A stretch of 64,000 nt of DNA from a virus (IMGVR_UViG_3300038345_000118:22149-86148), one strand, 5' to 3'. Shown: positions 23,734 to 58,650, counted from the first letter of the stretch. Numbers and translations are program-made. The notes: generated by a model not told the origin, from the letters alone.

Positions 23734-23768
23734 CGAATTTACAGGTTAACGGATAAAAAATCAAGGGC
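23734..23768 (-). promoter_or_regulatory. phage late-type promoter
   Basis: GCCCTTGA-N19-TAAATTCG upstream of the spanin candidate. Confidence 0.75.
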
Positions 23769-23777
23769 GTATTTTTC

Positions 23778-24098
23778 ACAAAAGCGCCGCCAACCCAAAA
23801 AGCTACAACAGGGTCGGCAGCGCGGAGAATGGAAATTCAGCAAATTGCTTCAAAGAGAAGCAAGACTCAGAGCAAGAAGGCTACCTAAGCTGAAGCAGCC
23901 AACTCTACGAGTATATCCATCCTCACAGGATTCTTTTCACATTATTATCTTTTTATGGCAAAAATTGAAATGCACCTCACGGCGATATTTGGGTCGCGGC
24001 GCAGACGCAGGCATTAGAGGTGGCGTTAGCTGTGCGTTTTAATTAGGCGGGAAAACTGCGCCGCGATGTATCTGAAGACTGTTAGTCTGCTTTATGTT
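23778..24098 (-). ncRNA. candidate ~320-nt small RNA
   Basis: Promoter TACCTTTG (24106-24113) and terminator GCGCTGCCGACCC/GGGTTGGCGGCGC-TTTT; no convincing ORF between. Confidence 0.4.
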
Positions 24099-24744
24099 TG
24101 CGTTGCAAAGGTAAGTAATTTTATCGTAACTACCAAGAAATTAGATAGTTATCTTTTGAAATTTGGTTTTTGAAAAGCCGCATTTGTCCGCTTGTCTGGC
24201 GACTATCAAAACGCCGAATAACTCGTAACTCACTGATTATCAATTATTTATTTTAAAATTTTGCGGTTATTTTTATATTTTTATATTCATAAAGTGATTC
24301 AAAAAAAGGAAAGGATAGTATATATATATTATGTAAGTTATTGTATATCAATCATTTATTTTTATTTATCAATCTCTTATTACTTATAGTGGGTATGAGG
24401 GAGTTTCGCGCATGTATGATGAAATTAGTATTTCAATAAGAGAGTTTATATGTTTTTTTTGTTTTTAAAATACTTTGGGCGAAAAATGGGTGTTTTTAGA
24501 CAAGTGGGTAAAAAATGCATTGTAACTTATTGATATTCAGATAGGTTTCACTTATTTTTGCGTTAGACAAATAAAATGGCGAAAAACGGCACTTTTTGGA
24601 GTGTAACTTATTGATAATCAGTACTTGTCTAAAGTTTGTCCAAAACTTATTTTTTTGAGCCTAAATCAGACAAAAACAAGCGTTTTTGAATAAGTTGGAA
24701 AACTTTTGGAGAAGCAAACGGAAATGATTAACTTTGCCGTCGAG

Positions 24745-25368
24745 ATGGAGAAAAACTACAAGATACCGCCGATAACGTGGCTGAAGATGACGGACTACAT
24801 GCACGGTTGGCTGCAGCATGAGCTGGGCGGCGGTGCGAGAATCAAGGACCAGCGCGTAGTATGCGTGCAGCATCTGCCTGGTGCCAGGGAGGTGTTGCGC
24901 ATGGAAACGGTGGAGGATATGATGGAGAAGCGTCCTGCCGGCAATGCCATGAGCGGCACGCGGAAGAACTGTCTATGTGCCGGGATGGAACTGGACCCCG
25001 GTGTAATCGAGCGCGAGTACGGCATGACAAAAGAGCTGCTGAAGTTATACGTTCCCATCGAGTGTCCGAAGATGTGCCTGACGAAGAACGGCGTACTGCG
25101 TCCGTGGACGCTCAACGTATGCTTTGACAAGGAGCAGGCCACGGCTCTGCAGAAGTTGCTCAGACGTGAGTTTTGGAAGGCTGTGGAGAAATATAACGCG
25201 GAGTATGCCAGAAAGATGGGCGGGAAGAAATATCCTGCAATCGACATGATTGAGAATTTCTGCATGGATACCGAAACGCCGGACATGTACACAGAGGCCA
25301 TCAGGCGGGAATGGCAGCGGAGATGTAAGAGAAAACCCACCCCTACCCCTCCCGAAGGGAGGGAATGA
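24745..25368 (+). CDS. hypothetical protein (stand-alone; late activator candidate)
   Basis: Start re-set to MEKNYK just after TAACTTTG (24729-24736); basic helical C-terminus IRREWQRRCKR. Confidence 0.75.
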   Translation: MEKNYKIPPITWLKMTDYMHGWLQHELGGGARIKDQRVVCVQHLPGAREVLRMETVEDMMEKRPAGNAMSGTRKNCLCAGMELDPGVIEREYGMTKELLKLYVPIECPKMCLTKNGVLRPWTLNVCFDKEQATALQKLLRREFWKAVEKYNAEYARKMGGKKYPAIDMIENFCMDTETPDMYTEAIRREWQRRCKRKPTPTPPEGRE

Positions 25369-25375
25369 TTAGGCA

Positions 25376-26215
25376 TTATTTCCTCATGTCTTTGCCTTTA
25401 AATTCAATGGCGCGGACGATGGAGCGCAGGCGGCTAATGACCTCGTTGCCGTAGCGTTCCTGTATAGATAGCGGGTAACGCGGGTCATTGACGGGTGTGG
25501 TGGAGAGATTAGTGGTGATGATGAGCAGGTTTCCGTTCTGTTCCGCAGCGTCGCACAACTGGTAGAACGAGTCGTCTGGATTTCCGTAGTACTTTGCAGG
25601 TTCGCGTCCGAGACCGTCGATGATGACGATGCGCTCTTTCAGCAGGTCGTTGACCTTTGCTCTCATCTCAGTGGCCTTAACCGCAGGCACTTTTCGTCCG
25701 AGAATAACCGGCAGTATCTTCTCGCAGATAACTGTCTTTCCAAGTCCGCTAATGCCAACGCAGAGCAGCCCCCTACCCCGGTTGTCGGTCAGCCATTCTG
25801 CCACCTCGTCGTAAGCTGGAATCCACTGTACTTTGTCGCCCAGGAAATGTTGAAGTCCTTTCTTCAACCGCTCATGCGCGTTTGGTATAATTATATGCGG
25901 CCGTTGCAGATATGGGCCAGACGTTTCGTTTTGCAGAAAGTCAACGGGTGCTGACGCTTTGCTCTCCGCAATGCGATAGTTGAGTCTGACACCGGGTTTG
26001 AAACTGGAGTCAAGAGCCCATTTCATCATGGGCACGTGAATCTCCTCGATGTATTCAAAGACATAGCGGCTGGGCAGGCACAACACTACCGCGTTCTGCT
26101 CTTCGTCGTAGCGCTCGCAAATGATATCCTTGAACCATACATCAAAGACGTGCTGGCTCACCTTCAGCCGGATGAGTTGCTGGCATTGGTTCCAGAGTTG
26201 CTGCATATTTTCCAT
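25376..26215 (-). CDS. DnaA domain I fused to a DnaC/IstB-like ATPase
   Basis: LWNQCQQLIRLKVSQHVFDVWFKD (DnaA_N); Walker A GISGLGKT; IIIDGLGREP; LLIITTNL. Confidence 0.8.
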   Translation of the reverse strand: MENMQQLWNQCQQLIRLKVSQHVFDVWFKDIICERYDEEQNAVVLCLPSRYVFEYIEEIHVPMMKWALDSSFKPGVRLNYRIAESKASAPVDFLQNETSGPYLQRPHIIIPNAHERLKKGLQHFLGDKVQWIPAYDEVAEWLTDNRGRGLLCVGISGLGKTVICEKILPVILGRKVPAVKATEMRAKVNDLLKERIVIIDGLGREPAKYYGNPDDSFYQLCDAAEQNGNLLIITTNLSTTPVNDPRYPLSIQERYGNEVISRLRSIVRAIEFKGKDMRK

Positions 26216-26220
26216 GATGA

Positions 26221-30025: not shown

Positions 30026-30060
30026 GCCCTTGATTCGGTGTTCAACATTCATTATCTTGC
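30026..30060 (+). promoter_or_regulatory. phage late-type promoter
   Basis: GCCCTTGA-N19-TATCTTGC. Confidence 0.7.
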
Positions 30061-30114: not shown

Positions 30115-30966
30115 ATGACAGGGGAATTGCAGGAGAAAGTGAACCGTTCTGTCCGGCTGATACAGGCGGCCGGTGCTGACGGAAGCGTCGTTGAGGTATC
30201 ATACTCAGGCGGGAAGGACTCTGACGTTATCTTGGAACTGACACGCATGGCCGGAATCAAATTCCGTGCTATCTACAAGAATACGTCAATAGATCCTCCG
30301 GGAACCATCAGGCATGCCCTGGAACAAGGGGCTGAGGTAATGAGACCCGAAAAGACTTTCTTTCAGTTGTTAGAGGAAAACGGCATGCCTAACCGTTGGC
30401 AGCGCCACTGTTGCCGATATCTGAAAGAGTACAAGGTGCTTGAACGCAACATACAGGGAATCCGGAAGTGTGAGAGTACTAAAAGGGAGCAAGGCTACAA
30501 CGAACCGACGGAGTGTCGCGTCTACGGAAAGGGTCGCAAGAAGCAGACTGCCGAGGCATTCTATCCCATTCTTGACTGGACGGATGATGATGTCGTTGAA
30601 TTTATCACGGAGCGCGGCATCAAGGTGCATCCGCTCTATTACCGTGAGGACGGCACCATCGACGCAAGTAGAAGGCTGGGGTGTATGTGTTGTCCGCTTG
30701 CCTACTACAAGAAGCGTATTGACTATTTCAAGCGATATCCCGGCATGGTGCGTGCCTATTGCCGTTCGGCACAGAAATACCGGGACGCACACCCCGACGT
30801 AGAGACCGTGAAGAAATACGGCGATGTCTATGAATGGTTTACCCGTGAAGTGTTCTTTGAGAAGCAAAACGAATGGGAAAACCATAAGACGGTAACGCAA
30901 TTTACCCCCCCCCATTACAAACAGTTTCTTGAACGGTTTTTCGGCATTGAGCTGACTTTTAAATAA
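30115..30966 (+). CDS. PAPS reductase-family protein
   Basis: SYSGGKDS, NTSID, CCRYLKE, GIRKCES, RLGCMCCP. Confidence 0.9.
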   Translation: MTGELQEKVNRSVRLIQAAGADGSVVEVSYSGGKDSDVILELTRMAGIKFRAIYKNTSIDPPGTIRHALEQGAEVMRPEKTFFQLLEENGMPNRWQRHCCRYLKEYKVLERNIQGIRKCESTKREQGYNEPTECRVYGKGRKKQTAEAFYPILDWTDDDVVEFITERGIKVHPLYYREDGTIDASRRLGCMCCPLAYYKKRIDYFKRYPGMVRAYCRSAQKYRDAHPDVETVKKYGDVYEWFTREVFFEKQNEWENHKTVTQFTPPHYKQFLERFFGIELTFK

Positions 30967-31414: not shown

Positions 31415-31449
31415 GCCCTTGATTTTGCGATACAGGAAAGGTACATTGC
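31415..31449 (+). promoter_or_regulatory. phage late-type promoter
   Basis: GCCCTTGA-N19-TACATTGC. Confidence 0.75.
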
Positions 31450-31503: not shown

Positions 31504-32691
31504 ATGGTACGGAAAATACAGAGTGACGAATATCTGAAACGTTACGATAAAATGACCTTGGCAGAACGCCAGGCATACAAGGACAGGGTAGGGCAGTGGC
31601 TGCGCTCTGGGGGACGATTGCTGTCCGTTAGGGCTGCCGACTTTGACGCCCGCCTGCAAAACGTACTGATGGTCAGCATCAGTTGGAATGACGCAGAGTG
31701 CCAGGCATTCGAGGCGGGAGCACATCTTTTGAGTGCGCTGGTGAACAGTGCAGACACATGGCTTCCCGATTTGCTATATATTAAGGCAGCAAAGAGGGCT
31801 ATCAACAATATGATAAGAGCACTCTCTTCCATCTCCTTCATTGACACGAAGGGAGCAGGTGCGCCTGTGAATCAGAAACCGAAGGAGGAGCCTTCGGGAA
31901 AAACCCGAAAAGAAGCGGAGGCCGTCGGAGGAGGTTATATACCCACCGGAAAACCGGCGGGCACGGTGGCTGACACGAAAGCGGGCACGGTAGCTGACAC
32001 GAAAGCGGGCACGGTGGCTGTAACGTCGGCGGGCAAGAAGCCTGTAGAAAAACCAACGGTCACGGTGACTGCCGTGCCGCCACGGCCTAAGCATATCGAC
32101 CAGTATGTGCATCTTCTTCCGGTGAAGACACAGGAGCGTGCGGCGAAGGTGAAAGACCTGTTGCGCGAACTTGATTATGCCAGAGAGAAGGCACGGCTGC
32201 TGATGGATTCCCCACAGGCCAGTCCTGACGATCGTGCGGCCTGGGCCAAGAAGGCTACTTCCTGCGACAATGCCGTGAGAAGCATCTACAAGGAACTGGA
32301 TGCAGAGTGGGATAAGCTGGTGAAGAGCGGCCGTATAGAGGTTGATGTGTTTGGCAATGCGAGAGTGGTTGCCGACGGAGAACCGTCGGGCACGGTGGCG
32401 GAGCAGGAGAAGCCGGAGCTGACCTCTGAGCAGAAGCACCGGAGGCGGGAGCTACGGAAGTGGCTTATTGACACACGGCGCGGTTCGGAGGGTAAGGCCC
32501 GTGAAAAGCGCATCGAGCAGTGGAAGGTGAACATCCGTGAGTACCTGACGCTGGAGCCTCTCGAAACGGCATTGAAGGATGAGAAGCTCGTTGTGGCTGC
32601 AGAACATTTCGGAGTTGATATTAAGGCTGCGGCAGAATCGCAGCATACTAAAAAAGCGACATCCGAGAGGAAACCAACCAAACAACAATAA
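31504..32691 (+). CDS. hypothetical protein with AGTVADTK repeats
   Basis: 395 aa; 24-bp tandem repeat near 31957-32020. Confidence 0.85.
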   Translation: MVRKIQSDEYLKRYDKMTLAERQAYKDRVGQWLRSGGRLLSVRAADFDARLQNVLMVSISWNDAECQAFEAGAHLLSALVNSADTWLPDLLYIKAAKRAINNMIRALSSISFIDTKGAGAPVNQKPKEEPSGKTRKEAEAVGGGYIPTGKPAGTVADTKAGTVADTKAGTVAVTSAGKKPVEKPTVTVTAVPPRPKHIDQYVHLLPVKTQERAAKVKDLLRELDYAREKARLLMDSPQASPDDRAAWAKKATSCDNAVRSIYKELDAEWDKLVKSGRIEVDVFGNARVVADGEPSGTVAEQEKPELTSEQKHRRRELRKWLIDTRRGSEGKAREKRIEQWKVNIREYLTLEPLETALKDEKLVVAAEHFGVDIKAAAESQHTKKATSERKPTKQQ

Positions 32692-32709
32692 ACCAACACA
32701 AAAACGACT

Positions 32710-33255
32710 ATGACTTTTCATTCGATAGTGAGGCAGTGGTGCCAGACGTACAAGCCGATGCTGGATAACCCGGAGAATGGGAACCGGCGGTTTTACCTGA
32801 CGGACTCTACCGCTGGTGTGGTGGAGATGGCGAAGGGTATCAGTAATAAGTTTTCTCCATTCGTGATGATGGAGAGCAACGTGGAGGGCGGAGGTCCGAT
32901 AGCGAGGCCCTCCAGGAACTACCCTATATACTTTTTCGTCAGGGCTCGTGACATGGCCGACGGCGATGCCGCTGCCGAGGCGAAGGAAGAGGCGTGGTAC
33001 CACGCACAGCAATACCTGACGTGGATCAAGGACAAGCACGACAGGGAAATTGCCGAGAATATCGACGGCGACTATGCGCGTATAGACCTGGACAACGCCC
33101 TGCTTGACATTACAACCGTAGGTCCTCTGGAGAACGGATGGTACGGAGTGCTCATACAGTTTGAGCGCGAGGAGCCGCTGAATTTGTGCGTGGATGAGGA
33201 GATGTATATAGCCCCACCCCTGCCCCTCCCCGAAGAAGAGGGGAGTAGTTTCTAA
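32710..33255 (+). CDS. hypothetical protein
   Basis: 181 aa co-oriented ORF. Confidence 0.8.
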   Translation: MTFHSIVRQWCQTYKPMLDNPENGNRRFYLTDSTAGVVEMAKGISNKFSPFVMMESNVEGGGPIARPSRNYPIYFFVRARDMADGDAAAEAKEEAWYHAQQYLTWIKDKHDREIAENIDGDYARIDLDNALLDITTVGPLENGWYGVLIQFEREEPLNLCVDEEMYIAPPLPLPEEEGSSF

Positions 33256-33273
33256 CAAAACAAAACGCAGACG

Positions 33274-33627
33274 ATGGGAAAAGGGAGAGATGAAGGGAAC
33301 GAGATTCACGTTACCGACATTAATGCGCTGAAGGACAACACGCAGGCTGCGGTGGAAGGATTCGCCGAACGGTGGATTTCCATGCCGTCGTTCACTGAAG
33401 ATTGTGAGGTGATGGATGTAAGGCAGTTGCGTGATGCGATGGGAATACGGGCGACGATTGAAGCCGGAGACCCGTGGCCCGCTGCCGAGAAATTGTTGTT
33501 GAACCTTGGATTCCGCTGGCATTGGTTAGGCAATTCACGGGTGATGTTCCTACGGGAACGCGACGATTACACGGGTACGAGTGCCGGCGGTGGTGACGGA
33601 TGGGATGACGGAGAGGAGGTAGATTAG
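33274..33627 (+). CDS. hypothetical protein
   Basis: 117 aa co-oriented ORF. Confidence 0.75.
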   Translation: MGKGRDEGNEIHVTDINALKDNTQAAVEGFAERWISMPSFTEDCEVMDVRQLRDAMGIRATIEAGDPWPAAEKLLLNLGFRWHWLGNSRVMFLRERDDYTGTSAGGGDGWDDGEEVD

Positions 33628-33715
33628 AGTGAAGAGTGAAGAGTGAAGAATTGGGCTGCGACCGAGTCGCAGCATACAATTAAGCATTGTAAGATATAAA
33701 CTTTTTAAATAACAA

Positions 33716-34384: not shown

Positions 34385-34585
34385 CGGGGATGGGCTTCGT
34401 AGGCCCGAAGGGTCTATATCCCATCCCCAGAAACGGCGCGACGGTCTCTAAAACCGTGACGGCCATATTTTAGTAATCATCATCAGCCATGCCGCCTTGC
34501 TTTCCTCGGTGTGGCTGCTGATAGAGCTGCAACACAGTTGCAGCATACGGAAAAGGGATAGACAAAAAAAACGCGATAATGAATT

Positions 34586-39345: not shown

Positions 39346-39380
39346 GCCCTTGATTTCTGGATGTAAGATAGATATATTGG
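39346..39380 (+). promoter_or_regulatory. phage late-type promoter
   Basis: GCCCTTGA-N19-TATATTGG upstream of the portal candidate. Confidence 0.75.
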
Positions 39381-41379: not shown

Positions 41380-41413
41380 GCACGGGTGGCTGTGAAGCCG
41401 TCCGTGTTTTTTT
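41380..41413 (+). terminator. intrinsic terminator
   Basis: GCACGGGTGGCT-GTGA-AGCCGTCCGTGT-TTTTTT. Confidence 0.75.
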
Positions 41414-41427: not shown

Positions 41428-41462
41428 GCCCTTGACCAGCGGAGTTTCTGCAATTAAATTGC
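41428..41462 (+). promoter_or_regulatory. phage late-type promoter
   Basis: GCCCTTGA-N19-TAAATTGC. Confidence 0.75.
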
Positions 41463-48500: not shown

Positions 48501-49518
48501 CGCAGCCACGGAGCTTATGATTGAAAACTCCAACAAGCGGACGCAAGTACAGGTTGAGAACGACAAGAAGACGGTTAAGAGTTCTCAGAGCATGTTTGCC
48601 AAGATGACCCAGGCGGCCAACCTGTACGGTATTGCTTATCAGGCAATGTCGAACGACAATTTGAGCACGACGCAGAAATTTGAGATGATTGGCGTGCAAG
48701 CAGCCGGTCAGGCAGCTATTGCAGCACTGACGGCTAACTGGTCGGAAAAGACCGGAGAAACAGTAGGCACATTGCCTGCTATTTTGGCAAAATGCCTTAA
48801 CATCAACCCGATTGCAGGTGCCGCCATCTTTGCCGCTTTGACTGCCGTTATCGGCGGTCTAATGGGAATGGCAGCATCGAAGATTGCGAAGTCGAAGAGC
48901 GAGATTGCGCAGGCTACGGGCGTGAGCGGTGCAAGTGCCGGTAAACTGACCACAGGTATGCTGACATACGCAGAGGGTAACGTTAACGAGTTTACCGACC
49001 CGTCCACCTTGCGGGAAGGCAGGATGTACAACGTGGATTCAGCCGACGGGCGCACATACCGGGCCCGTTATATGGGCCGCAATCCGAAGACGCATATCAC
49101 CAACGGTCCGGAGTTCCACCTGAGCGGCGAGCGTGGCAAGGAGATGATTATCGACGCAGGCACCACCCGTCAAATCACCATGAACGACACGGAGATCTGG
49201 CGGGCCATACAGACGCTTTCTTCCGGAAGGAGGATGAGCACACAGAGAAGACACCGGAAAGGTGTGACCTCTTTTGCAGAAGGTAATGTAGATGACTTTA
49301 TGGATGGCGTTGATGAAATCGACATGGAAGAAACGAGCATGAATATAGACGCCATGCGCACATCCCTCGACCGGAACAGTGCCGTGCAGGAGGCTTTGCT
49401 GGAAAGGCTGAACGAGCCTATCATCGCCAGGAATATCTGGACGGGTCCGGAAGGCATTCCCAACATGTATAACAAGATGCAGAAGGAGGCCGAGCGCCAC
49501 GGCGAGAAATACGTATAG
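42544..49518 (+). CDS. tail tape measure protein (TP901-like core)
   Basis: 2324 aa, helical and Ala-rich; MELSDKMGEVRKTTGFTADEV..LMDLSVAAGQLG. Confidence 0.92.
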   Translation: MARNNVQTTVTVGMDVQLAKRNANALKEVIIELKNQLKEQRALMDNSASAEGYKKAAEAVDNLILKIKTLEKVQRSATPATAYEAFISGDVMNSNKLRQAQRGAKNRLNTVPSGASDQTARTLINDINRAQVQLNRLQAGFQKPLQSVKKELRDLSGNELQRLLQLLKQEQTLVQGNDKAWSAYAAAIGKVEERMREYDTLARQQMGASTLSRSQSGGFAQANERDIQRAIDKLREYRAVINDPNGTGKATWEATTREILKLQSTLDGLKQKAAEASGQAMSLDRALGIGLRARVGTYTGTIQELTLVKQTLESNLQTARRNSVEYDKIKRALNAVELELKKTGELSKEVQAVLNSPKGKSFNELKQAVEQGRAALQNMRTDTDKGKKAFDELAKKVKEAEFQMKELGGASKGTASAFDKAWSRLKTYIGLYMGAAVAIQKITATMGDLMELSDKMGEVRKTTGFTADEVGRLSNELKKMDTRTTLTGLMDLSVAAGQLGLKTEEDVLGFTEAANKLMVALPEMGKEGATEMLKVALATGEIDKIRRQMEQGLIDGSSATAVAMEKVGSTIDRLRATSAATAPAITDFVKRVGAVGAQSGISIDQVAALGSTVDALGMRVEMSATALSRMMPAIRNNAFDIAKILGITPDTIRELYDTGQGMEVILMILQRMKDSNMDADSIEQMLGMGGMKEIMKELNQQGARAGIVFGGLSQNVDELRRQLGVAKQAYEENIAIQQEYDKMNETTAAKWERLKNQIEEFFVGDQSQQWLGKIIDGLRLFVDVLTGNLRPALGWITVLLQTFLVYWAALKVGLGEAIFLKAAGGLKAMGSGLTNLISNTQQYIMYSKALRNAKLAEAAASTAAEKAIAAQSVATIKAKMAQEGLNKAMIANIWMAVAAAFVALGVALYRYIDSMREAGREAAKFQAELDKEQRKVNELTNSIGEARVKIEDANKEVAKARAELDAAKKANDGTTEAVNRLTKAESELLVKEEAKKNAMAAHKQLITEFNNQYSKYLGFMLSEVSSNLELARARDLVNSKLRETLTLKRQEAAIERIEKEKGGDRDEEYANLYDFVGRKAGSDDPSKRSRVMNSITRLAQNAKDENAFRSGAIKIFKNNKIGNYDALLRQAVDYYEEVYDIRQAIDRVVEQFKGEQQGNRATSQGDLIRQVNASFSNYNSLLRRYRGSKGDDRARNAAAVLQQMDTLAEQRANASSYYDMNDPREAAMYRKQFGALNAWKGYDRNTLLKEAGRYYTPRKKMQPGGGSGSGGSFTTSDRYTSGYSGNSIWGNEVDAASTDYSTWDVNELVARRNQMNKFKNVLKPGIDVRKVLAEDRALMKAIDEGKVGEDWQSVLNWYNAERKKIQEELKSERFSTNEGNWRDEKTKKGRRRVNPLIESDYALAELDRYYSRRKEALEKARSEENISEELYNRQAEMLEQEHLERRSKLRGTFTGEVSKEETAAFRKWWADLEKMDELDHVPWATVESEWSKALAAQIGRNNLKMQQDMTQVESITMKHVNQIAQIIAKERPYDGITENLQANLTKMDILFADLGTVTKKQLEDGSLTKELSRRMSFLLDETERAYSLTAEQLMSDMGAKGFKAWADAIANAKNADELKRQLLAQLQKAYDAVQDAIKKESSLIKKQAEIQWNDTILPGGISQRNAYEAALSTLGLQKDQVDRANSLIGVGPASERVADKLAIKQMQVRLAMQEQYYALIRKIGNERIKQLEEAGKLEDAEHLRKSLNLTLSEEQKKLDEQRVAIQNQLEESQERLYKRLREWGELIAGSVQSVFEASHAGDKEYYNERAKMALTGKGGPGAGTYVVIDNAGTSGATAHYEHLNERQALERHYEIERQNAMAEAWKKVMDDINMKMSETITDQINAMLQNASIDANTDATNADTQAIGTLTETLANGLTVNTISGGELPVIDESNPDTWGRAARKRAGLPVDENPHDHTISEGAQGMENAGLADAFLSQEVMDMSTAATELMIENSNKRTQVQVENDKKTVKSSQSMFAKMTQAANLYGIAYQAMSNDNLSTTQKFEMIGVQAAGQAAIAALTANWSEKTGETVGTLPAILAKCLNINPIAGAAIFAALTAVIGGLMGMAASKIAKSKSEIAQATGVSGASAGKLTTGMLTYAEGNVNEFTDPSTLREGRMYNVDSADGRTYRARYMGRNPKTHITNGPEFHLSGERGKEMIIDAGTTRQITMNDTEIWRAIQTLSSGRRMSTQRRHRKGVTSFAEGNVDDFMDGVDEIDMEETSMNIDAMRTSLDRNSAVQEALLERLNEPIIARNIWTGPEGIPNMYNKMQKEAERHGEKYV

Positions 49519-49572: not shown

Positions 49573-52023
49573 ATGCAAAATATAGATTTAGTAATCCCGA
49601 TGGTGTTTCCGGAGGATAAGGAATGGCAGCAGACTTATGCCCGCTTCCGCAGTGGCGATGCGAGCAGGAACGTCCGCTTCCGGTCGTGGGGGACGGAGGA
49701 GTTGCTGGTAAAATGCTGCCTGAAGTATATGCCGTGGTTGAGACGCATTCACCTGCTGCTGGCTTCGCCTTCGCAGGTGAGGGGGTGGATGAAGAATATG
49801 GTTGCGACTGAGTCGCAACATACGGAAAAGCCGGGCGTTCACCTGGTGTTTCATCGGGAGTTTATTCCAGAGGAGTATCTGCCTTGTTTTTCGTCGCCTT
49901 GCATTGAGATGTTCCTGCATAGGATACCGGGGCTCTCGGAGCATTTCATCTATGCGAATGACGATATGTTTCCGCTTTCGCGGTTAGATGAGAGCGATTT
50001 CTTTAGGGTTCCGACTGGTTTTAATGACGGGATTACGGGATTACGGGATAACGATGTTGTTATGCCTTGTCAGTACATTACGGAGATTCCTTATCCGTCG
50101 GTGGCAAATGATTTTCACCGGGCATGTTTGAATGGGCTGAACATGGTGGCAGCTCCTTTCGGGAAGCATTTTACCAAAACTTATCTGAAGAACGGTCACA
50201 GTTTTGCCCCATACCTGAAGAGCGTATGCGAAGAGGTATGGCGGCGGCACGGCGAGCAGATTCTGCAGCATCTCTCTCCGCTGAAGCGCAAGTCAGACAG
50301 TTACAACCAGTATCTCTATGCCTATTATCAGCATCTTTCAGGACTGGAGATTTCACATGCGCCGAGAGAGCAGTATGTAGGACGGAGCACGCCTACCAGT
50401 CGCATTGCTGCTATTATCCGAGACCCGGATGCAGGAATCGTGTGCCTGAATGACAACGACGATATTAAGGACTGGGAGAAGCGGGCTGATGTGGTGAGAC
50501 GGGAGATAGCCGCAAAACTTCGGGGAGACGCTAACGATAACGCTAACCCTAACGATAACGCTAACCCTAACGATAACGATGACGATAACGATGAAGGGGT
50601 TCGTGTGCTGATCATTCACTATAACACACCGGAACTCACGGCAGCGGCTATTCGCTCACTGTGGAAGCATACGCCAGAGGCAAGGGTGACGATATTCGAC
50701 AACAGCGACAAGCGGCCATTCTGCTGCGATGAAATCGCAGCCTACGGGGAAGTGGAGGTTATTGACAATACGAAGGGACAGGTGGTAAACTGGGAGGAAT
50801 GGCTGGAAACATTTCCGGAGAAGGTGCCTACTCCTGAAAACAACTGGGGGTCTGCAAAGCACTGCTATTCGGTGGAGGTATGCCTTGACTTGTTTCCTGA
50901 AGGCTTTATCCTGATGGACAGCGATGTGCTGATTAAGCAGGATGTGAAGGGACTCGTTGACACGACTGTCCCTTGGAAGGGAGGCATCCAGGTGAACACC
51001 CGCCGGTTCGGACTGGTCATTCCTCGCGTCATACCTTACCTGTGCTGGATTAACACGCCCATTTTGCAAAAGCATGGCATCCGCTATTTTAACGGTGAAA
51101 AAATGTGGAACCTCACAGCCAAGTCGCCCAACAACCACTACGACACGGGAGCGTGGCTGCTGGAGGCTTGCAATCAATCCGGGCTGAATGGCCGCCGTGT
51201 AGAGATACGCGACTACATGGTACATTACGCCCACGGCTCATGGCGCGGACATAAAGAGCCCGGCAAGTGGCTGAATGAGTACAAAAGCCTCTGGTGGACA
51301 TGTCCCGACACGAAGATATACATCTGCACACATACGGACTTTAATGCGGTAGTGAAGAATCCCGTCTACGAGGTGGTAGATGCACGAGAATACGACGGAG
51401 ACCGTTGCAGCAACGGGTTGCCGGGTTCGTTTTATTCCGAATTGATTCTCTATAAACATATTGCCGAACGAGAATACCTTCCTGAGTATGTGGGCTGCTG
51501 CGGTTACAGAAAGTACTACTCCTTTATGGACGACGTGCCTGACATTCCGGAAATCTTCAAGAACTATGATGCCATTGCCGCCACACCTGTCAGGATAAGG
51601 CCAGACGTGAGAAGTCAGTATGCCCGCTGTCACAACGTGAAAGACATAGACATTGTGAGCGACATTATCAGGAAGGACTACCCTGACCTGTGGCCAACTT
51701 ACGAAAAGTCGTTGCGTCTGCCAGCATTGTACGCCTGCAATATGTTTATATTGCGTCGCGAAGATTTCCGATGGATTGTCAAGACGGTGTTTGACATCCT
51801 CGACAAATATCTGGAAACTGTAGGACTTGACATTGCCGGTCGTGTTAGCGGCCACCCGGAAGATTACCACATCGGCATGAACAAAGTAAGTACGGTGCAT
51901 TACCAGAGCCGAATCGGAGGATTCCTTGGCGAGCGGATTGTCAATGCACTTTTGCGACAGCGATTCAAGAACATCAAACACTACGACAAAGTTATCACCC
52001 AGAAGGCGGTGGTCTGCCCTTGA
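49573..52023 (+). CDS. Stealth phosphotransferase + GT-A glycosyltransferase + DUF4422 fusion
   Basis: Stealth CR2 LPCFSSPCIEMFLHRIPGLSEHFIYANDDMF; GT-A HYNTPEL, IFDNSD, LMDSD; DUF4422 YSEL, GCCGYRKY, CNMFI, GFLGER. Confidence 0.88.
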   Translation: MQNIDLVIPMVFPEDKEWQQTYARFRSGDASRNVRFRSWGTEELLVKCCLKYMPWLRRIHLLLASPSQVRGWMKNMVATESQHTEKPGVHLVFHREFIPEEYLPCFSSPCIEMFLHRIPGLSEHFIYANDDMFPLSRLDESDFFRVPTGFNDGITGLRDNDVVMPCQYITEIPYPSVANDFHRACLNGLNMVAAPFGKHFTKTYLKNGHSFAPYLKSVCEEVWRRHGEQILQHLSPLKRKSDSYNQYLYAYYQHLSGLEISHAPREQYVGRSTPTSRIAAIIRDPDAGIVCLNDNDDIKDWEKRADVVRREIAAKLRGDANDNANPNDNANPNDNDDDNDEGVRVLIIHYNTPELTAAAIRSLWKHTPEARVTIFDNSDKRPFCCDEIAAYGEVEVIDNTKGQVVNWEEWLETFPEKVPTPENNWGSAKHCYSVEVCLDLFPEGFILMDSDVLIKQDVKGLVDTTVPWKGGIQVNTRRFGLVIPRVIPYLCWINTPILQKHGIRYFNGEKMWNLTAKSPNNHYDTGAWLLEACNQSGLNGRRVEIRDYMVHYAHGSWRGHKEPGKWLNEYKSLWWTCPDTKIYICTHTDFNAVVKNPVYEVVDAREYDGDRCSNGLPGSFYSELILYKHIAEREYLPEYVGCCGYRKYYSFMDDVPDIPEIFKNYDAIAATPVRIRPDVRSQYARCHNVKDIDIVSDIIRKDYPDLWPTYEKSLRLPALYACNMFILRREDFRWIVKTVFDILDKYLETVGLDIAGRVSGHPEDYHIGMNKVSTVHYQSRIGGFLGERIVNALLRQRFKNIKHYDKVITQKAVVCP

Positions 52024-52050
52024 TAGTCGAGCCGTTTTTCCGTAATTTCG
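52016..52050 (+). promoter_or_regulatory. phage late-type promoter
   Basis: GCCCTTGA-N19-TAATTTCG; the TGA doubles as the upstream stop codon. Confidence 0.75.
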
Positions 52051-52083: not shown

Positions 52084-53379
52084 ATGCTTATCACAACACA
52101 AAACGAAATCATATCGCTGATGCCGACGGCACGGTGGGACCGGCCGCAGCAGCTCTTCGGCTATCTGGAAGAAGAAGAGCAGGTGGCACTTGAACCGCTG
52201 TTAGGCAACAGCCTGTATCAGTTCCTTCTTACTGAGTATGACCGTCTGCGTAAGAAATACACCGACATCACGGCAACGACTGTGCGCCCCACGGCAAAGG
52301 CCAAACAGGATGCACGGCTGGCCTATGCCGACGTGACGGAACGCCTGGAGCAGATACAGCAGGGCAACTACCGCGAAACATACACCACGGTTGACGATGG
52401 CGAGCATGACGTGTCCGAGACAGACCTTGCCACCATCCGGCTGATCCGCATTTGCCAGCAGATTGAGTTCTACAAGATGCTGTCCCATAAAGCTGGGTTG
52501 CTGACGGTATCGTTCAATGAGGGTGGCGGCATGAACATGGTGAGTGCCGACGGCTACGAGCCTGCCGACGAGAAGCGCATGGAGCGTGTGGTGAAGGATG
52601 CCTGGATGAGTGCCGGCAGGGCCGTTGACTCACTGCTGCTGTTTCTGGAGGCTGACGCTAAGGATGGAAAGCTGTTTACGGACAAGTGGAACGAAGCCGA
52701 TGCTTTCTACCTGCACAAGGATTTACTTTTTCAGACGGCACGGGTGCTGAATGAATACCTCGACATCAAGGGGGAAAGGATGGCGTATGTGCAGCTGTTG
52801 AGGGATATCCGATTCTGCCAGAACACCTATCTGAAGCCGAGGATTGGCAGGAAGCTGCTTGCCGAAATAATTCGCTACGCCAATCTCGGGATAACGGGAT
52901 CTCAGGATAACGGTATAGCGAGTTCCAGCAGCGATTCAGACAGCAGCGACTCCGATGCTGACGCAACGGACACGGTGGTTTATGAGGAACTGCTTGGGAT
53001 GCTGCGCACGGCGCTGGCTTTGTATGTAGAAGGGCGACGGACGACCATCACACAGACCACCCTGCTCTCCGGATCTGGGACATACGCAACAGCCAGTTCT
53101 CAGAAAGATGTGAAACTGGCACGGCGCGACAGTATGACCGACGCGCAGCAGGCAATGGCCATGGCATGCGAATACATCGAGGAAAACCTCGATGCACTGG
53201 GACAGGCAGCCATAGACACTCCTATATATAACGCGGTGCGTGCGCGTGAGGCACAGGAGGAACGCGACAAGGCTTGCACCTGTGCGGCTGCCATGCGTCG
53301 GCAGCGGGAAATCTGTAAGCAGACCAGTAAGAAGATGTTCACAGGATTTCCGGCCACGCATCGGACGCCGGAACGATAA
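52084..53379 (+). CDS. phage structural protein candidate (DUF6712-like)
   Basis: 431 aa in the head module; family call by resemblance only. Confidence 0.55.
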   Translation: MLITTQNEIISLMPTARWDRPQQLFGYLEEEEQVALEPLLGNSLYQFLLTEYDRLRKKYTDITATTVRPTAKAKQDARLAYADVTERLEQIQQGNYRETYTTVDDGEHDVSETDLATIRLIRICQQIEFYKMLSHKAGLLTVSFNEGGGMNMVSADGYEPADEKRMERVVKDAWMSAGRAVDSLLLFLEADAKDGKLFTDKWNEADAFYLHKDLLFQTARVLNEYLDIKGERMAYVQLLRDIRFCQNTYLKPRIGRKLLAEIIRYANLGITGSQDNGIASSSSDSDSSDSDADATDTVVYEELLGMLRTALALYVEGRRTTITQTTLLSGSGTYATASSQKDVKLARRDSMTDAQQAMAMACEYIEENLDALGQAAIDTPIYNAVRAREAQEERDKACTCAAAMRRQREICKQTSKKMFTGFPATHRTPER

Positions 53380-53451: not shown

Positions 53452-53486
53452 GCCCTTGACTCATAGATGACGATTTGGTAAATTTG
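53452..53486 (+). promoter_or_regulatory. phage late-type promoter
   Basis: GCCCTTGA-N19-TAAATTTG. Confidence 0.8.
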
Positions 53487-53527: not shown

Positions 53528-55387
53528 ATGTTAAGAGCCTATTTTGAACAGACCTTCTATGACATGCCCGTAGAGACTGCGCAGAAATACGCAGAAGGCA
53601 TCCGCGTGGCCATCATCGCCGGGAAAGACTTTGACGGCGAGAAAAAGGAAGGGTTTTTCCTGTCCAAGAAACGGGGTTTCGAGGACAAGCTATACGTTGG
53701 CAACATCCATCGTATCGAGAACCATCTGTACTGGAGAGACGAGGAACTGGCCGATGACGATCAGATTGTGAACGTGGTGATGCTTGACGGCCCCGTGACG
53801 CGCGACGGTGACGGGTGTTCGTATGGCTCCAAGGATCACCGTGACCAGATTATGTATGCCAACACCATTCCGCAGGTGGTAGGCCATATCTTCATCATTA
53901 ACACCCCCGGCGGTGCTGCCAGTGCGCGTATTGACTACGAGCAGGCCATTGCCGACTGCCGCGAGAAAGGCAAGCCTACGGTGGCGTGGGTGGACGGTCT
54001 GTGCTGCTCTGCCGGTCAGTTGGTTGCATCGCTGTGCGACCGCACAGTTGTGATGAACGGCCGAAACACGATGGGCTGTATCGGTACGATGTGTGCTTTC
54101 TGGGGCGTTCCAAACGGAACGATTGACAAGGACGGATACCGCTACATTGAACTGGTGAGCGTGACATCGCCTGACAAGAATGCTGAACACCGTGAGGCCG
54201 TTGACGGCAAGACGGAGAAGCTGCAGGCTGAGCTTGATAAGCTGGGCGAGGAGTTCCGTGAGACCGTCAGGCAGAACCGTCCGTTGGTGAAGGAAGAGCA
54301 CCTGACCGGTAAGACTTTCGAAGCACAAGACGTGATGGGTGCTCTGGTTGACGAGATTGGCGACTACAACCGTGCCATCGAGTGCGTGTTTGAGCTGGCA
54401 GATGAGAAGATGCCTGCAGCACGCTTCGCCACAAGCGAACCCGACGGAGAGACGCCGGCCACGGAGGAACCGGAAGAGCAGAAGGAAATGTCCAATCTGA
54501 ACGATCAGCAAAAAGCCGCCGTTGCCGCTAATGCCGGAGCCACGATGATAATTGACGACGGACATGTAAAGGAATCAGTTGACACCATGTTCGGACCAGT
54601 AGAAAAAGAAGTTGCAACCCCTAAAAACGATAGCACTATGACAGACGAAGAGAAGAAGGCCGCCGAAGCTGAAGCAGCCAAAGCCGCCGAACAGGAAGAA
54701 GCTGCTGCGACAGAATCGCAGCATACGGAACAGGAAGCCGAAGTGCCCTCCACCGAGGAAACGACGGCGACCGAGGAAGCGCCTGCTGCAGAGGAAGCGC
54801 CTGCCGCAGAGGAGGAGCCTTCCGGAGAAGCCCCCTCTAACTCCCCCGAAGGAGGAGAACAGGAGCAGCCCGCAACAGAGGAGCAGCCTGCCGGAGAAGC
54901 GGCTGGCACAGAAGCGCCCTCTGAGGAAACCATTGCCGAAGCGCAGGCTGAGATTGACCGAATCACCGAGTCTCTGCATACCGCCGAGGCATTGGTGGAA
55001 GAGAAGGACAAGACGATTGCTGCCTTGCAGGGCGACATGGAAGTCCTGAAGAAGGAAGCCGGCGAGAAGGATGCCACTATTGCCACGCTGGAAGGCATTG
55101 CCGAAGAGCGCGACCTGAAGGCCAAAGACCTGACGCTCGCTTTCCAGAACCTCGAAGAAAAGGACAAGACTATTGCCGAACTGAAGGCCGCTAACGAGAA
55201 GCTGGCGAAGCAGGTGGATGATCTGAAAGCCGAAGTGAAGGAACTCAGTGAGAAGCCTACGCCGATGGTGACAGCTGAGAGCGGTGTACCTTCCGCCAAC
55301 GGAACGGGTGCCGAGCCCAAGCCTGAAAAGCAGCAGCGCATCAAGCCCGGAATGAGCTACGAGGAGATTCGGGAGGCTTTGAAATAG
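53528..55387 (+). CDS. S49 prohead protease with acidic/coiled-coil scaffold C-terminus
   Basis: LDGPVTR, INTPGG, LCCSAG, SPDKN; E/A-rich coiled-coil tail. Confidence 0.9.
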   Translation: MLRAYFEQTFYDMPVETAQKYAEGIRVAIIAGKDFDGEKKEGFFLSKKRGFEDKLYVGNIHRIENHLYWRDEELADDDQIVNVVMLDGPVTRDGDGCSYGSKDHRDQIMYANTIPQVVGHIFIINTPGGAASARIDYEQAIADCREKGKPTVAWVDGLCCSAGQLVASLCDRTVVMNGRNTMGCIGTMCAFWGVPNGTIDKDGYRYIELVSVTSPDKNAEHREAVDGKTEKLQAELDKLGEEFRETVRQNRPLVKEEHLTGKTFEAQDVMGALVDEIGDYNRAIECVFELADEKMPAARFATSEPDGETPATEEPEEQKEMSNLNDQQKAAVAANAGATMIIDDGHVKESVDTMFGPVEKEVATPKNDSTMTDEEKKAAEAEAAKAAEQEEAAATESQHTEQEAEVPSTEETTATEEAPAAEEAPAAEEEPSGEAPSNSPEGGEQEQPATEEQPAGEAAGTEAPSEETIAEAQAEIDRITESLHTAEALVEEKDKTIAALQGDMEVLKKEAGEKDATIATLEGIAEERDLKAKDLTLAFQNLEEKDKTIAELKAANEKLAKQVDDLKAEVKELSEKPTPMVTAESGVPSANGTGAEPKPEKQQRIKPGMSYEEIREALK

Positions 55388-55389
55388 TT

Positions 55390-55424
55390 GCCCTTGACTT
55401 TCATAACGCTTTTATGTAATTTCG
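55390..55424 (+). promoter_or_regulatory. phage late-type promoter
   Basis: GCCCTTGA-N19-TAATTTCG upstream of the capsid gene. Confidence 0.8.
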
Positions 55425-55473: not shown

Positions 55474-56754
55474 ATGGCTTACGCATTAAGTATTGCACAG
55501 ATTCAGACCGTCAAAGAGACGATCCATCCCGAGCTGGTAGCCAAGGCTTATCTGCTCACTGACTCGATGTTTGAGGACCTGGGCATGAAGGTTACAACCG
55601 ATGTCGAGAATATCGACACCTGTTACATCTTCTCCCGTCAGGGCCTTCAGGCACGCCCCTATGTGGTCGGCAACGTGAAGAGCTCTCAGCTCGGAAAGTT
55701 TGTTGACAATCCCGCCAAGGTAGAGTCCATCTATCTTCACACCTCTGACTCTATTGAGCGCTACAAGGAGAAAGGCCCGTTCCAGGAGACCAATGTCGCC
55801 GAGAGCGCCGAGCACACCACCTTCCTGCTGAAGGAACTCTCCGGTCGTTTTGCCGAGGATGTACGTGCCAACGTCTTCTTCGGAAACAAGGCCAACCGCT
55901 CACTGCCTGAGACTGCCGAGAACCAGGCCAAGCTGGGTCTCTCGCTCTTCGACGGTTTCTACACCATCATCGCCAAGCGCCGCACCGACGGCTCTATCAG
56001 CGTGGCCAACGGCAACCTGATTGAGACTGGCGACATCGCAGGCAAGACCGCCAAGCAGGTCTATGAGATTCTTACCGCCTTCTACGGTGGCCTGAGTGCC
56101 GCTATGAAGAAGCCCGAGCAGAAGGTGTACATCTACGCCAGCGACGAGTTCTGCCGCAAGGCTGTGAAGGGTTACATGGAGACCTACCCACAGATTGCCC
56201 CCACCGTGCTTCAGGCAGGTTGGAAGTTTGTGGAGATGCCCAACGTCACCCTCGCCACCTCTTCTGCCATGGGTACCGGCGGTCAGCTGATCGCCACCGT
56301 CGAGGGCAACCTGGAGTTTGTTTGCGGCAACCGCGAGAACGACGCTCTCATCAGCATCGGCCAGGTGAACACCGACCTCCGCGTGTTCGACTACCAGGCC
56401 AACGGCCGTGCCTGCGTCCGCATCCGTGACTTCGCTCCTGAAGTGTTCGCCACCAACGACGCCGTGAACACCTACACCACGCTGCCTGGCGACTACATCG
56501 CCGACATCTTCACTGTATCAAGCAGTGACGAGAACGAGGGTACCGTGGCCATCAGCAGCGGTCAGAAGGATCTCTATGCTGAGGGTGATGTCATCACTGT
56601 GGCTGCCACGCCGAAGAGCGGCTTCGTATTCACAGGGTGGAGCGATGGTTCCATTGCCAATCCCTACAACTACACCTTTACTGGTGGTGTTGAGAATCTC
56701 GTTGCCATGTTCGAGGAAGAGGATGCTTCCAGCGGCGATTCTTCCAGCGACTAA
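55474..56754 (+). CDS. major capsid protein with C-terminal InlB-B-repeat-like domain
   Basis: Follows the protease, strongly biased codons, LSLFDGFYTII; tail GDVITVAATPKSGFVFTGWSDG..NPYNYT. Confidence 0.8.
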   Translation: MAYALSIAQIQTVKETIHPELVAKAYLLTDSMFEDLGMKVTTDVENIDTCYIFSRQGLQARPYVVGNVKSSQLGKFVDNPAKVESIYLHTSDSIERYKEKGPFQETNVAESAEHTTFLLKELSGRFAEDVRANVFFGNKANRSLPETAENQAKLGLSLFDGFYTIIAKRRTDGSISVANGNLIETGDIAGKTAKQVYEILTAFYGGLSAAMKKPEQKVYIYASDEFCRKAVKGYMETYPQIAPTVLQAGWKFVEMPNVTLATSSAMGTGGQLIATVEGNLEFVCGNRENDALISIGQVNTDLRVFDYQANGRACVRIRDFAPEVFATNDAVNTYTTLPGDYIADIFTVSSSDENEGTVAISSGQKDLYAEGDVITVAATPKSGFVFTGWSDGSIANPYNYTFTGGVENLVAMFEEEDASSGDSSSD

Positions 56755-56855
56755 ACTATCACCATCGGAGGTGAGCGGCGGCCGGACATTTGCTGCCTGA
56801 CCGCCGCCCTCTGACTTACGTTTCACGAATACCAACACAAAAACAAAATTAGATT

Positions 56856-57458
56856 ATGGCTTGCAACTTAAAAAACGTACTCTCCAGCGGCAGCGACTGT
56901 AAGGAGAACCCCTCCGGACTGAGCAACCACGTATTCGTTGTGCCCCTGGATGCGGATCACATTCACAGCATTGCCGTGAACGATGCCAAGAACCAGTATG
57001 TCATTTCTCCTGCCGGTGCTTCGTCAGGCGAGCCTGCAGCCCTCAAAGGCTTCCGTATCGACTTCAAGAGTCAGACGGGTCAGGTGACTTCTGAGGACAA
57101 CGGCCAGGGCAAGGGCTGGACCCACACGGGTACAGGACGTGTGGAGCTGAACGAGGATGACATGGCTCTCGTCAGCCGCACGCTGCACAACTCCGACAAG
57201 AACCTGTTCTTCTTCCCGACCGGAAAGGTGACAGAGGATGGTACGGAGTACAAGGTCATCGGCAACCAGTTTGGCGAGGCCGAGTGGGGTGTAGCAGCCG
57301 ACAGCGGCACTGCACGTGGCGACGACCACGGACAGACCTTCACTGTCACCTGCGGTTATCAGGTTTATCCTGTAATGAAGTGGTACGGCACCATCCAGCA
57401 GGATGAAGACCAGACCTTCACCGACGAGACAGGCGACGAGGTTATCATCACTGATTAA
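56856..57458 (+). CDS. putative major tail protein
   Basis: 200 aa, beta/Gly-rich, highly biased codons, follows the capsid gene. Confidence 0.6.
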   Translation: MACNLKNVLSSGSDCKENPSGLSNHVFVVPLDADHIHSIAVNDAKNQYVISPAGASSGEPAALKGFRIDFKSQTGQVTSEDNGQGKGWTHTGTGRVELNEDDMALVSRTLHNSDKNLFFFPTGKVTEDGTEYKVIGNQFGEAEWGVAADSGTARGDDHGQTFTVTCGYQVYPVMKWYGTIQQDEDQTFTDETGDEVIITD

Positions 57459-57571
57459 TTCCCCTTCCTACATACGACGAGGCCCAGGCTCAATAAGTCT
57501 GGGCTTTGTTGTAATCAATTCAGGCTGCCGTGACACAGCAGCATACACAGCAAATTTAACGACGAAAGACT

Positions 57572-58087
57572 ATGCTACAGATAGAACCTTGCTGCACGCA
57601 GAAACACCTGCTTGCACTGAGAAGCAAACTCGGAGAGAACGGAACAGCCTTTTGGCACGGTTATGGCGACTTGTCACTGGCGGAGCTACTGCCGCACATA
57701 CTGACGCGCTACAGTGAGACGGAAATGCTGCTGGCAGTTCCAGCCCTTCCCGACGCCGCCGCCGAAACAGTAAAGAACATCATGCAGAAACAGTGGATGC
57801 GTATGGACGGCAAAGGCAAGCTCAATGTCGTCAAGCATCTCACACTTGTCGCCGACCTACGGAAAAAGAAATCCCCTGCGGCAAACGGCTGGCTCACGGA
57901 GAATCCTTTTGGTGATCGGCTGACGATCCGCAACGTGCAGCAGGGTGATACGGCCATCCTGTTGCCGGACATTGCTTTCTTCGGCAATATCAACCTTACC
58001 TACGGCAATCACTTTACAGCAATGGCCACAAAGCACAAGAAACTTATTGACGAGATGAGGAAGAACTTTTTAATGCTTAATTCATAA
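57572..58087 (+). CDS. hypothetical protein
   Basis: 171 aa. Confidence 0.75.
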   Translation: MLQIEPCCTQKHLLALRSKLGENGTAFWHGYGDLSLAELLPHILTRYSETEMLLAVPALPDAAAETVKNIMQKQWMRMDGKGKLNVVKHLTLVADLRKKKSPAANGWLTENPFGDRLTIRNVQQGDTAILLPDIAFFGNINLTYGNHFTAMATKHKKLIDEMRKNFLMLNS

Positions 58088-58097
58088 TGCATAATGC

Positions 58098-58589
58098 TCA
58101 GCTTATAAGCTGTATGCCCATCAGGCATTGGATGCGGAACGTGACATTCGTCTTTGCGCCGTCGCGCTCTACGTTGCAGAGATAGGTGTCCCTTGTTGCA
58201 GACACGAAGCCGCGTGAAAGGTCGCGGAAGGTGAGCAGGAGGTGTCGCGGTGTACGTTCCAGCCTGAGCAGGTAGTCCCACGTCTCACTATCCCTGTCAT
58301 CGACGCGGCACGTCACGTTGACGGTATGCATTCGTCCTGCCACGCTGTCAGACTCATCATCCTTGGCTTTTCCTGTCGTGTGGATGATAGGTATCAGCAT
58401 TCCGCCTGACGATGCCGGCTGAAGTCCTATGGTAATTGCACCGGTCATTGACGGGTCAAATTCTGTTCCGTCGATAACCGGCGTCAGTTGATTAGATACT
58501 GATGGCGGTGAGCTTGCAGGTATGTTTTCAATGGGTATGGCTGTAATGGCCATCACGTCGTCGAGGTCAAATTCCTTACAGTTGTTCAT
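58098..58589 (-). CDS. hypothetical protein (possible structural)
   Basis: 163 aa, driven by a late-type promoter. Confidence 0.75.
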   Translation of the reverse strand: MNNCKEFDLDDVMAITAIPIENIPASSPPSVSNQLTPVIDGTEFDPSMTGAITIGLQPASSGGMLIPIIHTTGKAKDDESDSVAGRMHTVNVTCRVDDRDSETWDYLLRLERTPRHLLLTFRDLSRGFVSATRDTYLCNVERDGAKTNVTFRIQCLMGIQLIS

Positions 58590-58615
58590 GTTGTTATTTC
58601 GTTATATTGTTAATA

Positions 58616-58650
58616 CTAAATTACGGGATAACGGAACAGAAATCAAGGGC
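58616..58650 (-). promoter_or_regulatory. phage late-type promoter
   Basis: GCCCTTGA-N19-TAATTTAG. Confidence 0.75.

Follow-up and report, generated by a model that had tools for sequence, protein, structure and literature searches.

What reads a short word that recurs ahead of gene after gene in a viral genome, always at the same distance from a second box? The question is raised by a stretch of 64,000 nucleotides (nt) of viral DNA (IMGVR_UViG_3300038345_000118:22149-86148; here ‘the window’), which is the last 64 kb of a longer IMG/VR viral contig (86 kb, with a completeness rating of 72%), and in which copies of the word GCCCTTGA are each followed by a TAnnTT box. These sites are, very probably, promoters of the sigma-A type that head late transcription units; what they might require beyond the host’s own polymerase is a second question, to which our answer is more guarded.

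Within the window there are ten copies of GCCCTTGA against 2.38 expected, a count that none of 100 shuffles reaches. In each case TAnnTT comes exactly 19 nt later (0.01 such pairs expected), and all ten are intergenic and run in the same orientation as a nearby downstream ATG, from which they are separated by short, A-rich leaders without a Shine-Dalgarno site; the remaining 22 kb of the contig, outside the window, holds no copy. An earlier note on this DNA had listed nine of the sites, with the right coordinates and -7 boxes, but overlooked the tenth, at 62885(-); its statement that the copies lie upstream of gene starts extends to all ten, each of which faces a start codon. The same holds more widely: in the eight fully fetched genomes of the family described below, an open reading frame (ORF) of at least 60 amino acids begins 40-170 nt downstream at 64 of 71 sites, as compared with 43% of random positions, and the predicted 5' untranslated region has a median length of 22 nt. 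Chance, or a mobile repeat, can be rejected as the source of the sites, because only the two boxes are conserved and the flanks are free to vary.

A motif scan of whole genomes and relatives, which the earlier note had suggested, finds the signal to be family-wide. We gathered 26 related phage records of 95-145 kb, 24 of which were found through a portal-like protein (58-81% identity) and a small Mor-like protein. The first two relatives contain 7 and 8 exact copies of the motif, and the 24 further relatives all carry it, with 5-11 copies each; the single exception, a 20%-complete fragment, has 2. None of the 26 gave a match with the reversed control. A search by alignment for more distant relatives, via the portal-like protein, returned the same 26 loci again, and when 14 kb of the late region was compared at the nucleotide level with the INPHARED phage collection, there was no match. 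The relatives are separate contigs of 92-126 kb in metagenome-assembled genomes (MAGs) of rumen Prevotellaceae and Bacteroidales. In five such host MAGs (2.3-3.5 Mb), 8-10 of the 11-14 motif matches sit on a single phage contig and the rest are at control level, whilst 400 other sampled Bacteroidales genomes show no motif cluster, with 0-6 scattered matches per genome. As the matches concentrate on the phage contig and form no cluster in those 400 genomes, the notion that the motif might be equally common in host DNA fails; host chromosomes are at background level.

The anatomy of the sites can be read from a logo of the 71 unique sites in the eight fully fetched genomes (964 kb). These genomes contain 93 copies of GCCCTTGA, with the downstream box at N19 in 71 cases, at N18 in one and at N20 in one, such that 71 of the 73 sites having a box within 14-24 nt share precisely the same spacing; the other ~20 words lie mostly inside ORFs, at about background (the reversed 8-mer control gives 14), and one-mismatch variants of the word are almost absent. 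A T immediately precedes the word in 66 of the 71 sites, and the base directly after it is C or T in 69. The spacer has no information content. The downstream box then reads T (65 sites) or G (6), A, T or A, A or C, T, T, with G preferred next and then C, and seven nt past the box (position +39 of the site) there is an A in 60 of 71 sites, with more A after it, which is the likely start. Counting back from that start, the inferred map places TGCCC at -40 to -36, TTGAYn at -35 to -30, a 17-bp spacer, and TAnnTT at -12 to -7. This is the frame of the group 1 members of the sigma-70 family (a TTGACA-like -35, a spacer of 17 +/- 1 bp, a TAnnnT -10 and a start ~7 nt downstream), so that the ‘fixed geometry’ previously remarked upon is indeed rigid, but is simply the standard one. 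The conserved word is asymmetric, and the logo contains no conserved second half-site.

Two further features of these sites deserve mention. GATATT replaces TAnnTT at N19 in 6 of the 71 sites and in many of the further relatives (e.g. L048, L052, L053, L057, L064 and L071, upstream of the portal-like gene); such a loss of the T at -12 is unusual among promoters of this phylum. Back-to-back arrangements of late-class promoters are also frequent in the relatives, with upstream words 4-42 bp apart and driving two divergent genes of more than 1000 amino acids: G1 38632(-)/38674(+), G2 9785(-)/9795(+), G21 9751(-)/9755(+), G15 51973(-)/51979(+), G6 79497(-)/79518(+) and G9 852(-)/869(+). In L051 the two words make a near-palindrome (TCAAGGGCAGTGCCCTTGC); as the distance between the words varies from one phage to another, occupation of both by a single dimer is disfavoured.

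The same phages also carry canonical promoters, of the form (c/t)TTG-N20-TAnCTTTG, and the TTG inside GCCCTTGA stands in the same register as theirs, 20 nt before the TA, which is the modal canonical distance. Compared with other TTG-N20-TAnnTT sites, those of the motif class have an A after the TTG in 47 of 47 cases (2 of 53 in the others), and a -7 box that ends in TG in only 9 of 47 (25 of 53 in the others); the motif-class box has TAnnTTGC in place of the canonical TAnnTTTG. The use of the two classes also differs. Plasmid-maintenance, replication and early genes have canonical promoters, an example being the parA promoter that diverges from the motif at 30026, and the view that early genes use canonical TAnnTTTG boxes therefore holds. 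This split of the classes by gene function is our main argument that they are regulated differently.

How much of the motif could the host read unaided? The sigma-A encoded in a host MAG has a region-4.2 helix, LTRERVRQI, that aligns with TRERIRQI of S. aureus SigA, a solved group-1 sigma, and a helix of this kind reads TTGACA in other bacteria. With the TTG register and the recognition helix both standard, TTGA(C/T) is explicable without any phage protein, and since the overall geometry is that of the standard sigma-70-family frame, a phage factor would be needed at most for TGCCC rather than for the whole word. The earlier suggestion that a phage activator or alternative sigma reads GCCCTTGA thus survives in part: there is a private regulon of virion and lysis units, probably late, but TTGAY within its word is an ordinary -35 element. 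What falls outside the explanation offered by the host machinery is TGCCC itself, the absolute A at -32 and the altered ending of the -7 box. We note that one host MAG (G027) contains two primary-sigma-like genes, L122:1261-2121(-) and L123:1246-2133(-), whose products of 286 and 295 amino acids are 76% identical; either the two are genuine paralogues or this MAG is a mixture of two strains.

Turning to the genes served by the sites, the motif precedes orthologues of one gene set across genomes, namely those for the portal-like protein, the protease, the capsid-like protein, the first tail protein, a core protein of 605-628 amino acids and the spanin-like protein; in relatives it also precedes the two divergent genes of more than 1000 amino acids (missing from the incomplete contig of the window), a 160-amino acid core protein and the Mor-like gene. 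The sites hence mark one conserved regulon of virion and lysis units, in keeping with the previous description of their targets as mostly morphogenesis and lysis genes. Of the individual roles then proposed, that of the protease is confirmed and that of the spanin fits the translated sequence, whilst portal and capsid are assigned by position only.

In the window, the promoter at 23734..23768(-) (box TAAATTCG; CGCCC instead of TGCCC, with C at -1; predicted start near 23729) heads a gene for a unimolecular-spanin-like lysis protein of 208 amino acids (23072..23698(-)), in the translation of which an N-terminal transmembrane segment with the lipobox LSGC and a C-terminal transmembrane segment can be read. 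Homologues occur in G1, G2, G6, G9 and G24, with the motif upstream in G6 and a variant, GCCCTTGC, upstream in G2. The promoter at 30026..30060(+) (box TATCTTGC), which diverges from the canonical parA promoter, lies upstream of a PAPS-reductase-like gene (30115-30966), and that at 31415..31449(+) (box TACATTGC) heads an operon at 31504-39306 that includes an endolysin (34586-35365) and a DNA methyltransferase (38587-39306). Next comes 39346..39380(+) (box TATATTGG), ahead of the 628-amino acid core gene at 39405-41291, whose orthologues are preceded by the motif in G1, G2, G9, G24 and G6. Direct reading of the sequence finds a terminator-like hairpin and, after it, a run of seven T at 41381..41413(+), directly before the promoter at 41428..41462(+) (box TAAATTGC); the latter, which has orthologous sites in relatives, heads the tail operon (41496-41927, 41980-42525, the 2324-amino acid tape measure at 42544-49518, and 49573-52023).

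The head genes follow. The promoter at 52016..52050(+) (box TAATTTCG) precedes the portal-like gene at 52084-53379, and in 23 of 26 related loci a GCCCTTGA box lies upstream of its orthologue, L051, L067 and L070 being among these though unscored by the exact N19 pattern. That at 53452..53486(+) (box TAAATTTG) heads the S49 head-maturation protease (53528-55387), and the site at 55390..55424(+) (box TAATTTCG again) does so for the capsid-like gene (55474-56754) together with those that follow. On the opposite strand, 58616..58650(-) (box TAATTTAG) heads 58098-58589(-), a core gene for a beta-rich protein of 163 amino acids whose orthologue has the motif ahead of it in G1 and G21. The tenth site, at 62851..62885(-) (box TATCTTGC), heads a structured leader of ~230 nt and then the Mor-like gene, and this same arrangement of promoter, leader and gene recurs in G1, G9 and G21. 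The leader (62617-62846(-)) contains a conserved hairpin of ~120 nt, also found at L036:3872-4062, L088:17877-18171 and L044:2700-3000, in which the outer 14-bp stem is invariant and 11 inner pairs show compensatory changes among the four sequences; an attenuator is one possible role for it, a small RNA in its own right another.

If TGCCC calls for a phage protein, which might it be? Searches were made in the window phage (G0) and in five complete relatives. Sigma70_r2 (PF04542) has no match at E <= 1 in any of the six, and the region-4 families r4 and r4_2 (PF04545, PF08281) match only below their family cut-offs; these weak matches are actually ordinary HTH_3 proteins, one of them a HigA-type antitoxin (18840-19142), and were rejected as sigma candidates. 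In agreement with the earlier note, then, no sigma-like gene is recognisable in this phage, nor in the five relatives. MotA and AsiA (PF09114, PF09010) have no match at E <= 1 in the five complete relatives, where sequence-unrelated analogues are possible, and none in G0; a look through the large proteins turned up no RNA polymerase.

Three genes were weighed as possible regulators: two of the candidates named in the earlier note, which had also pointed to 15706-16230, and one more from within the regulon. The Mor-like gene (62389..62616(-)) encodes a small helix-turn-helix (HTH) protein of 75 amino acids (phrog_17790) that weakly matches Pfam Mor, through its C-terminal HTH, at E = 0.006, and an alignment of which shows a conserved ...RYGI(T/S)DRQVYNI... 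helix. It occurs in 12 of the 16 records that are at least 90% complete. Three complete genomes, G006, G015 and G025, lack it although they have the motif in 10, 5 and 6 copies, and on account of this distribution it was rejected as the universal reader; this previously nominated candidate is itself a member of the regulon and, since the gene lies behind the motif, we regard it as a target rather than as the first switch. The 163-amino acid protein (58098-58589) was likewise judged an unlikely regulator, since it is beta-rich, belongs to the core set and has its own gene under the motif.

The third gene, p214 (24745..25368(+); product 207 amino acids), is an orphan with a host-type promoter (TTG at 24706-24708, TAACTTTG at 24729-24736) that ends 8 nt upstream of the ATG, such that its mRNA should be leaderless or nearly so. 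It is present in 16 of the 16 records that are at least 90% complete and has 445 homologues, none of them named or with a Pfam family; no Pfam or PHROG family was found for p214 itself, and the ESM Atlas yields unnamed viral clusters only. Its AlphaFold2 model, with a predicted local distance difference test score (pLDDT) of 93, has an alpha/beta domain and three helices. Foldseek against the PDB gives no match at E <= 0.001, and the three C-terminal helices (residues 140-200) are weakly winged-helix-like, with Z of 4-5.9, within the noise range of the tool. Its earlier nomination is in keeping with its universality; a distant homologue lies in a phage contig where no motif was seen. To look for covariation with the motif, two contigs with distant p214 homologues were usable, most others being too short; both are without the motif, which neither establishes covariation nor lends p214 support. 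In a 15-kb metagenome contig with such a homologue (L151:10850-10957), the parA junction has GTGTCCTTGC-N18-TATATT where the window phage has GCCCTTGA-N19-TATCTT, although this is a single case.

Alongside p214, the only other (near-)universal orphan candidate found is p129, a small and very basic protein of 119-170 amino acids that is encoded outside the window (contig 4628-4987(-); L009:4628-4987:-) and conserves ...SCLTGKVVWIYRG...EFYNHI..ERRRR. It is present in 8 of 8 fetched genomes and in 15 of the 16 near-complete records, its gene always directly precedes that of a universal orphan protein of ~1100 amino acids, and its model comprises a beta-hairpin and long helices. For both proteins universality is permissive evidence only, as any core gene is expected to be universal.

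Synthesising these observations, we propose that host RNA polymerase with its primary sigma-A would use the ten sites as promoters of the lysis, head and tail units and of a few small-gene units; that the weakened -7 box would make them poor promoters for sigma-A alone; and that a phage protein, produced from a host-type promoter, would read TGCCC beside sigma region 4, and there recruit or stabilise the holoenzyme in the manner of a class-II or sigma-appropriation-like activator. Given the asymmetry of the word, such an activator would act as a monomer. That the sites fire, fire late and need a phage protein is what we infer, ‘late’ being taken from gene content, and we would give this combined explanation, of sigma-A promoters that depend on a phage-encoded positive factor, about an even chance of being right. 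We favour a positive factor because the word is invariant in a family that has diverged to ~60% protein identity, because the -7 box is systematically weakened and because the gene classes are strictly split; invariance of a word across a diverged family is typical of conserved late activators and sigma factors, as in the T4 and Mu paradigms. Several observations weigh on the other side. The host recognition helix is of the TTGACA-reading type, and TTGAC with TAnnTT could suffice for sigma-A alone; for three of the ten copies, a virion or lysis function of the gene that follows is not obvious (PAPS-reductase-like, Mor-like and the 163-amino acid protein); and both firing and late timing are predictions. 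Amongst the candidates examined, moreover, no DNA-binding or polymerase-binding protein could be linked to the motif: p129 has no Pfam family and no informative fold match, and p214 is a core gene adjoining replication genes that could serve replication, and the 20 kb seen of a related 130-kb phage contig that encodes a distant homologue of it shows no GCCCTTGA promoter at the head genes. We nevertheless suggest, as a doubtful but specific possibility, a new kind of sigma-region-4 partner that docks beside sigma-A on the consensus -35 and reads the adjacent TGCCC; p214, with its confidently predicted fold and winged-helix-like C-terminus, would be the likeliest candidate. Were this true, some ten weakened promoters would become a strict late regulon, and the Bacteroidota would have their own equivalent of T4 MotA/AsiA or P1 Lpa, with no sequence relationship to either and with a different site architecture.

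The same host helix can be turned to an opposite account, in which the sites are strong sigma-A promoters, TTGAC offsetting the weaker -7 box, and a phage repressor that silences virion and lysis genes in the plasmid or lysogenic state binds TGCCC..A as an asymmetric operator. A sigma-A with a canonical -35-reading helix should find TTGAC a good -35; overlap with the -35 and a lack of symmetry in the word are both common in operators; the element has a c4-2 antisense RNA (18434-18512(-)), ParA and Rep; and P1 C1, a monomeric repressor with many scattered asymmetric operators, offers a model. Immunity repressors and their operators usually diversify, however, whereas this word is invariant in 26 relatives with proteins at ~60% identity, amongst which a repressor-like protein of 174 amino acids is just 39-59% identical between genomes. 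The conserved block spans only 10-11 bp, with the spacer and downstream sequence unconserved, and a systematically sub-consensus -7 box is odd for intrinsically strong promoters, so that negative control, though the main rival, strikes us as improbable. Less likely than this is a phage-encoded sigma, too divergent for Pfam, that replaces sigma-A and reads TGCCCTTGAY and TAnnTT by itself. One sigma with two reading domains would account for a bipartite signal this rigid, in which the spacing is exact and the upstream word, of 10-11 bp, asymmetric, and the preference for GC rather than TG at -6/-5 would suit a different region 1.2 or region 2; set against this, the profile searches gave nothing beyond sub-threshold, HTH-like matches to region 4, neither p214 nor p129 is sigma-like, and the core of TTGA with TAnnTT is what host sigma-A should read. 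A final proposal, that the Mor-like protein is an activator acting on TGCCCTTGA and stimulating its own promoter, as Mu Mor and C might lead one to expect, draws on its weak Pfam match, its conserved helix and the motif that heads its gene in G0, G1, G9 and G21; its absence from three motif-carrying genomes, along with the asymmetry of a word that would be read by a relative of proteins with dyad-symmetric sites, makes this very unlikely.

The element also encodes ParA-like, Rep-like and DnaC-like proteins, an ArdC-type anti-restriction protein, HU-like proteins and large methylase/helicase proteins. Together with the occurrence of its relatives as separate contigs, this gene content fits a phage-plasmid or temperate phage of the Prevotellaceae, ~120 kb in size. 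Adjoining the c4-2 RNA is a HigBA-type toxin-antitoxin pair (18840-19359(-)), in which the gene for a HigB-like (Gp49/DUF891) toxin overlaps that of the HTH_3 antitoxin. Between the spanin-like promoter and the p214 gene there is an AT-rich, gene-free stretch of ~950 bp (23780-24744), with two copies of TGTAACTTATTGATA, at 24521 and 24602, that are 81 bp apart; a second origin, or a field of operators, may lie here.

Very little is known of gene timing in Bacteroidota phages. Our literature search found no paper describing this signal, or any late-promoter signal of Bacteroidota phages, and a search for GCCCTTGA together with Bacteroides promoters returned unrelated papers only. The signal provides a tool for annotating the transcription units of widespread rumen Prevotellaceae phage-plasmids, and suggests that a transcription factor working on sigma-A, which is unusual in the Bacteroidota, still awaits discovery. 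It also offers compact and probably switchable promoter parts for engineering in Prevotella and Bacteroides, where strong regulated promoters are scarce. Should the promoters turn out to work without a phage protein, it would follow that a consensus TTGAC -35 can replace the phylum-specific TG of the -7 box.

How, finally, does this design compare with known ones? The consensus for the primary sigma of the Bacteroidota (sigma-ABfr) is -33 TTTG / -7 TAnnTTTG (as quoted in Ryan et al. 2020, PMC7366714). The phage sites resemble such promoters in having TTG 20 nt before TA, within the 19-21 nt usual for that class, in keeping TAnnTT (65 of 71 sites, with GAnnTT in 6), and in their short A-rich leaders without a Shine-Dalgarno site. 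They differ in the TGCCC added before the TTG, in the A(C/T) after it where the canonical class has G or C, in the scarcity of the TG ending (9 of 47 against 25 of 53 others), and in that host chromosomes do not use the motif class.

Middle promoters of T4, at which a MotA box is combined with a sigma-70 -10 and AsiA brings about sigma appropriation, likewise pair a phage-specific, asymmetric word in the -35 region with a host -10, and serve, as the present sites probably do, a temporal gene class. In T4 the box replaces the -35, whereas here an invariant TTGA still forms the -35 core, with the private part upstream; T4 middle promoters also tolerate spacings of 11-13 bp, in contrast to the rigid spacing here, and the five complete genomes lack a MotA/AsiA homologue. 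P1 (Lpa) and Mu (C, and Mor at its middle promoter) are likewise temperate phages or phage-plasmids. Their late operons have in common a private upstream element that a small phage activator reads along with the host holoenzyme, and a Mor-like gene is found here too. The sites of P1 and Mu are dyad-symmetric, however, and their promoters have no -35; the P1 sites are centred on about -22, those of Mu fall between -30 and -55, and Mor and C bind as dimers. The word described here has no such symmetry and stands directly against a consensus -35, and some of the phages have no Mor-like gene. By its use of a private upstream word with a host sigma -10, the design belongs with T4 middle and with Mu and P1 late promoters; it differs from them in that a consensus -35 is kept, with an asymmetric 5-bp word placed directly upstream, at rigid spacing.

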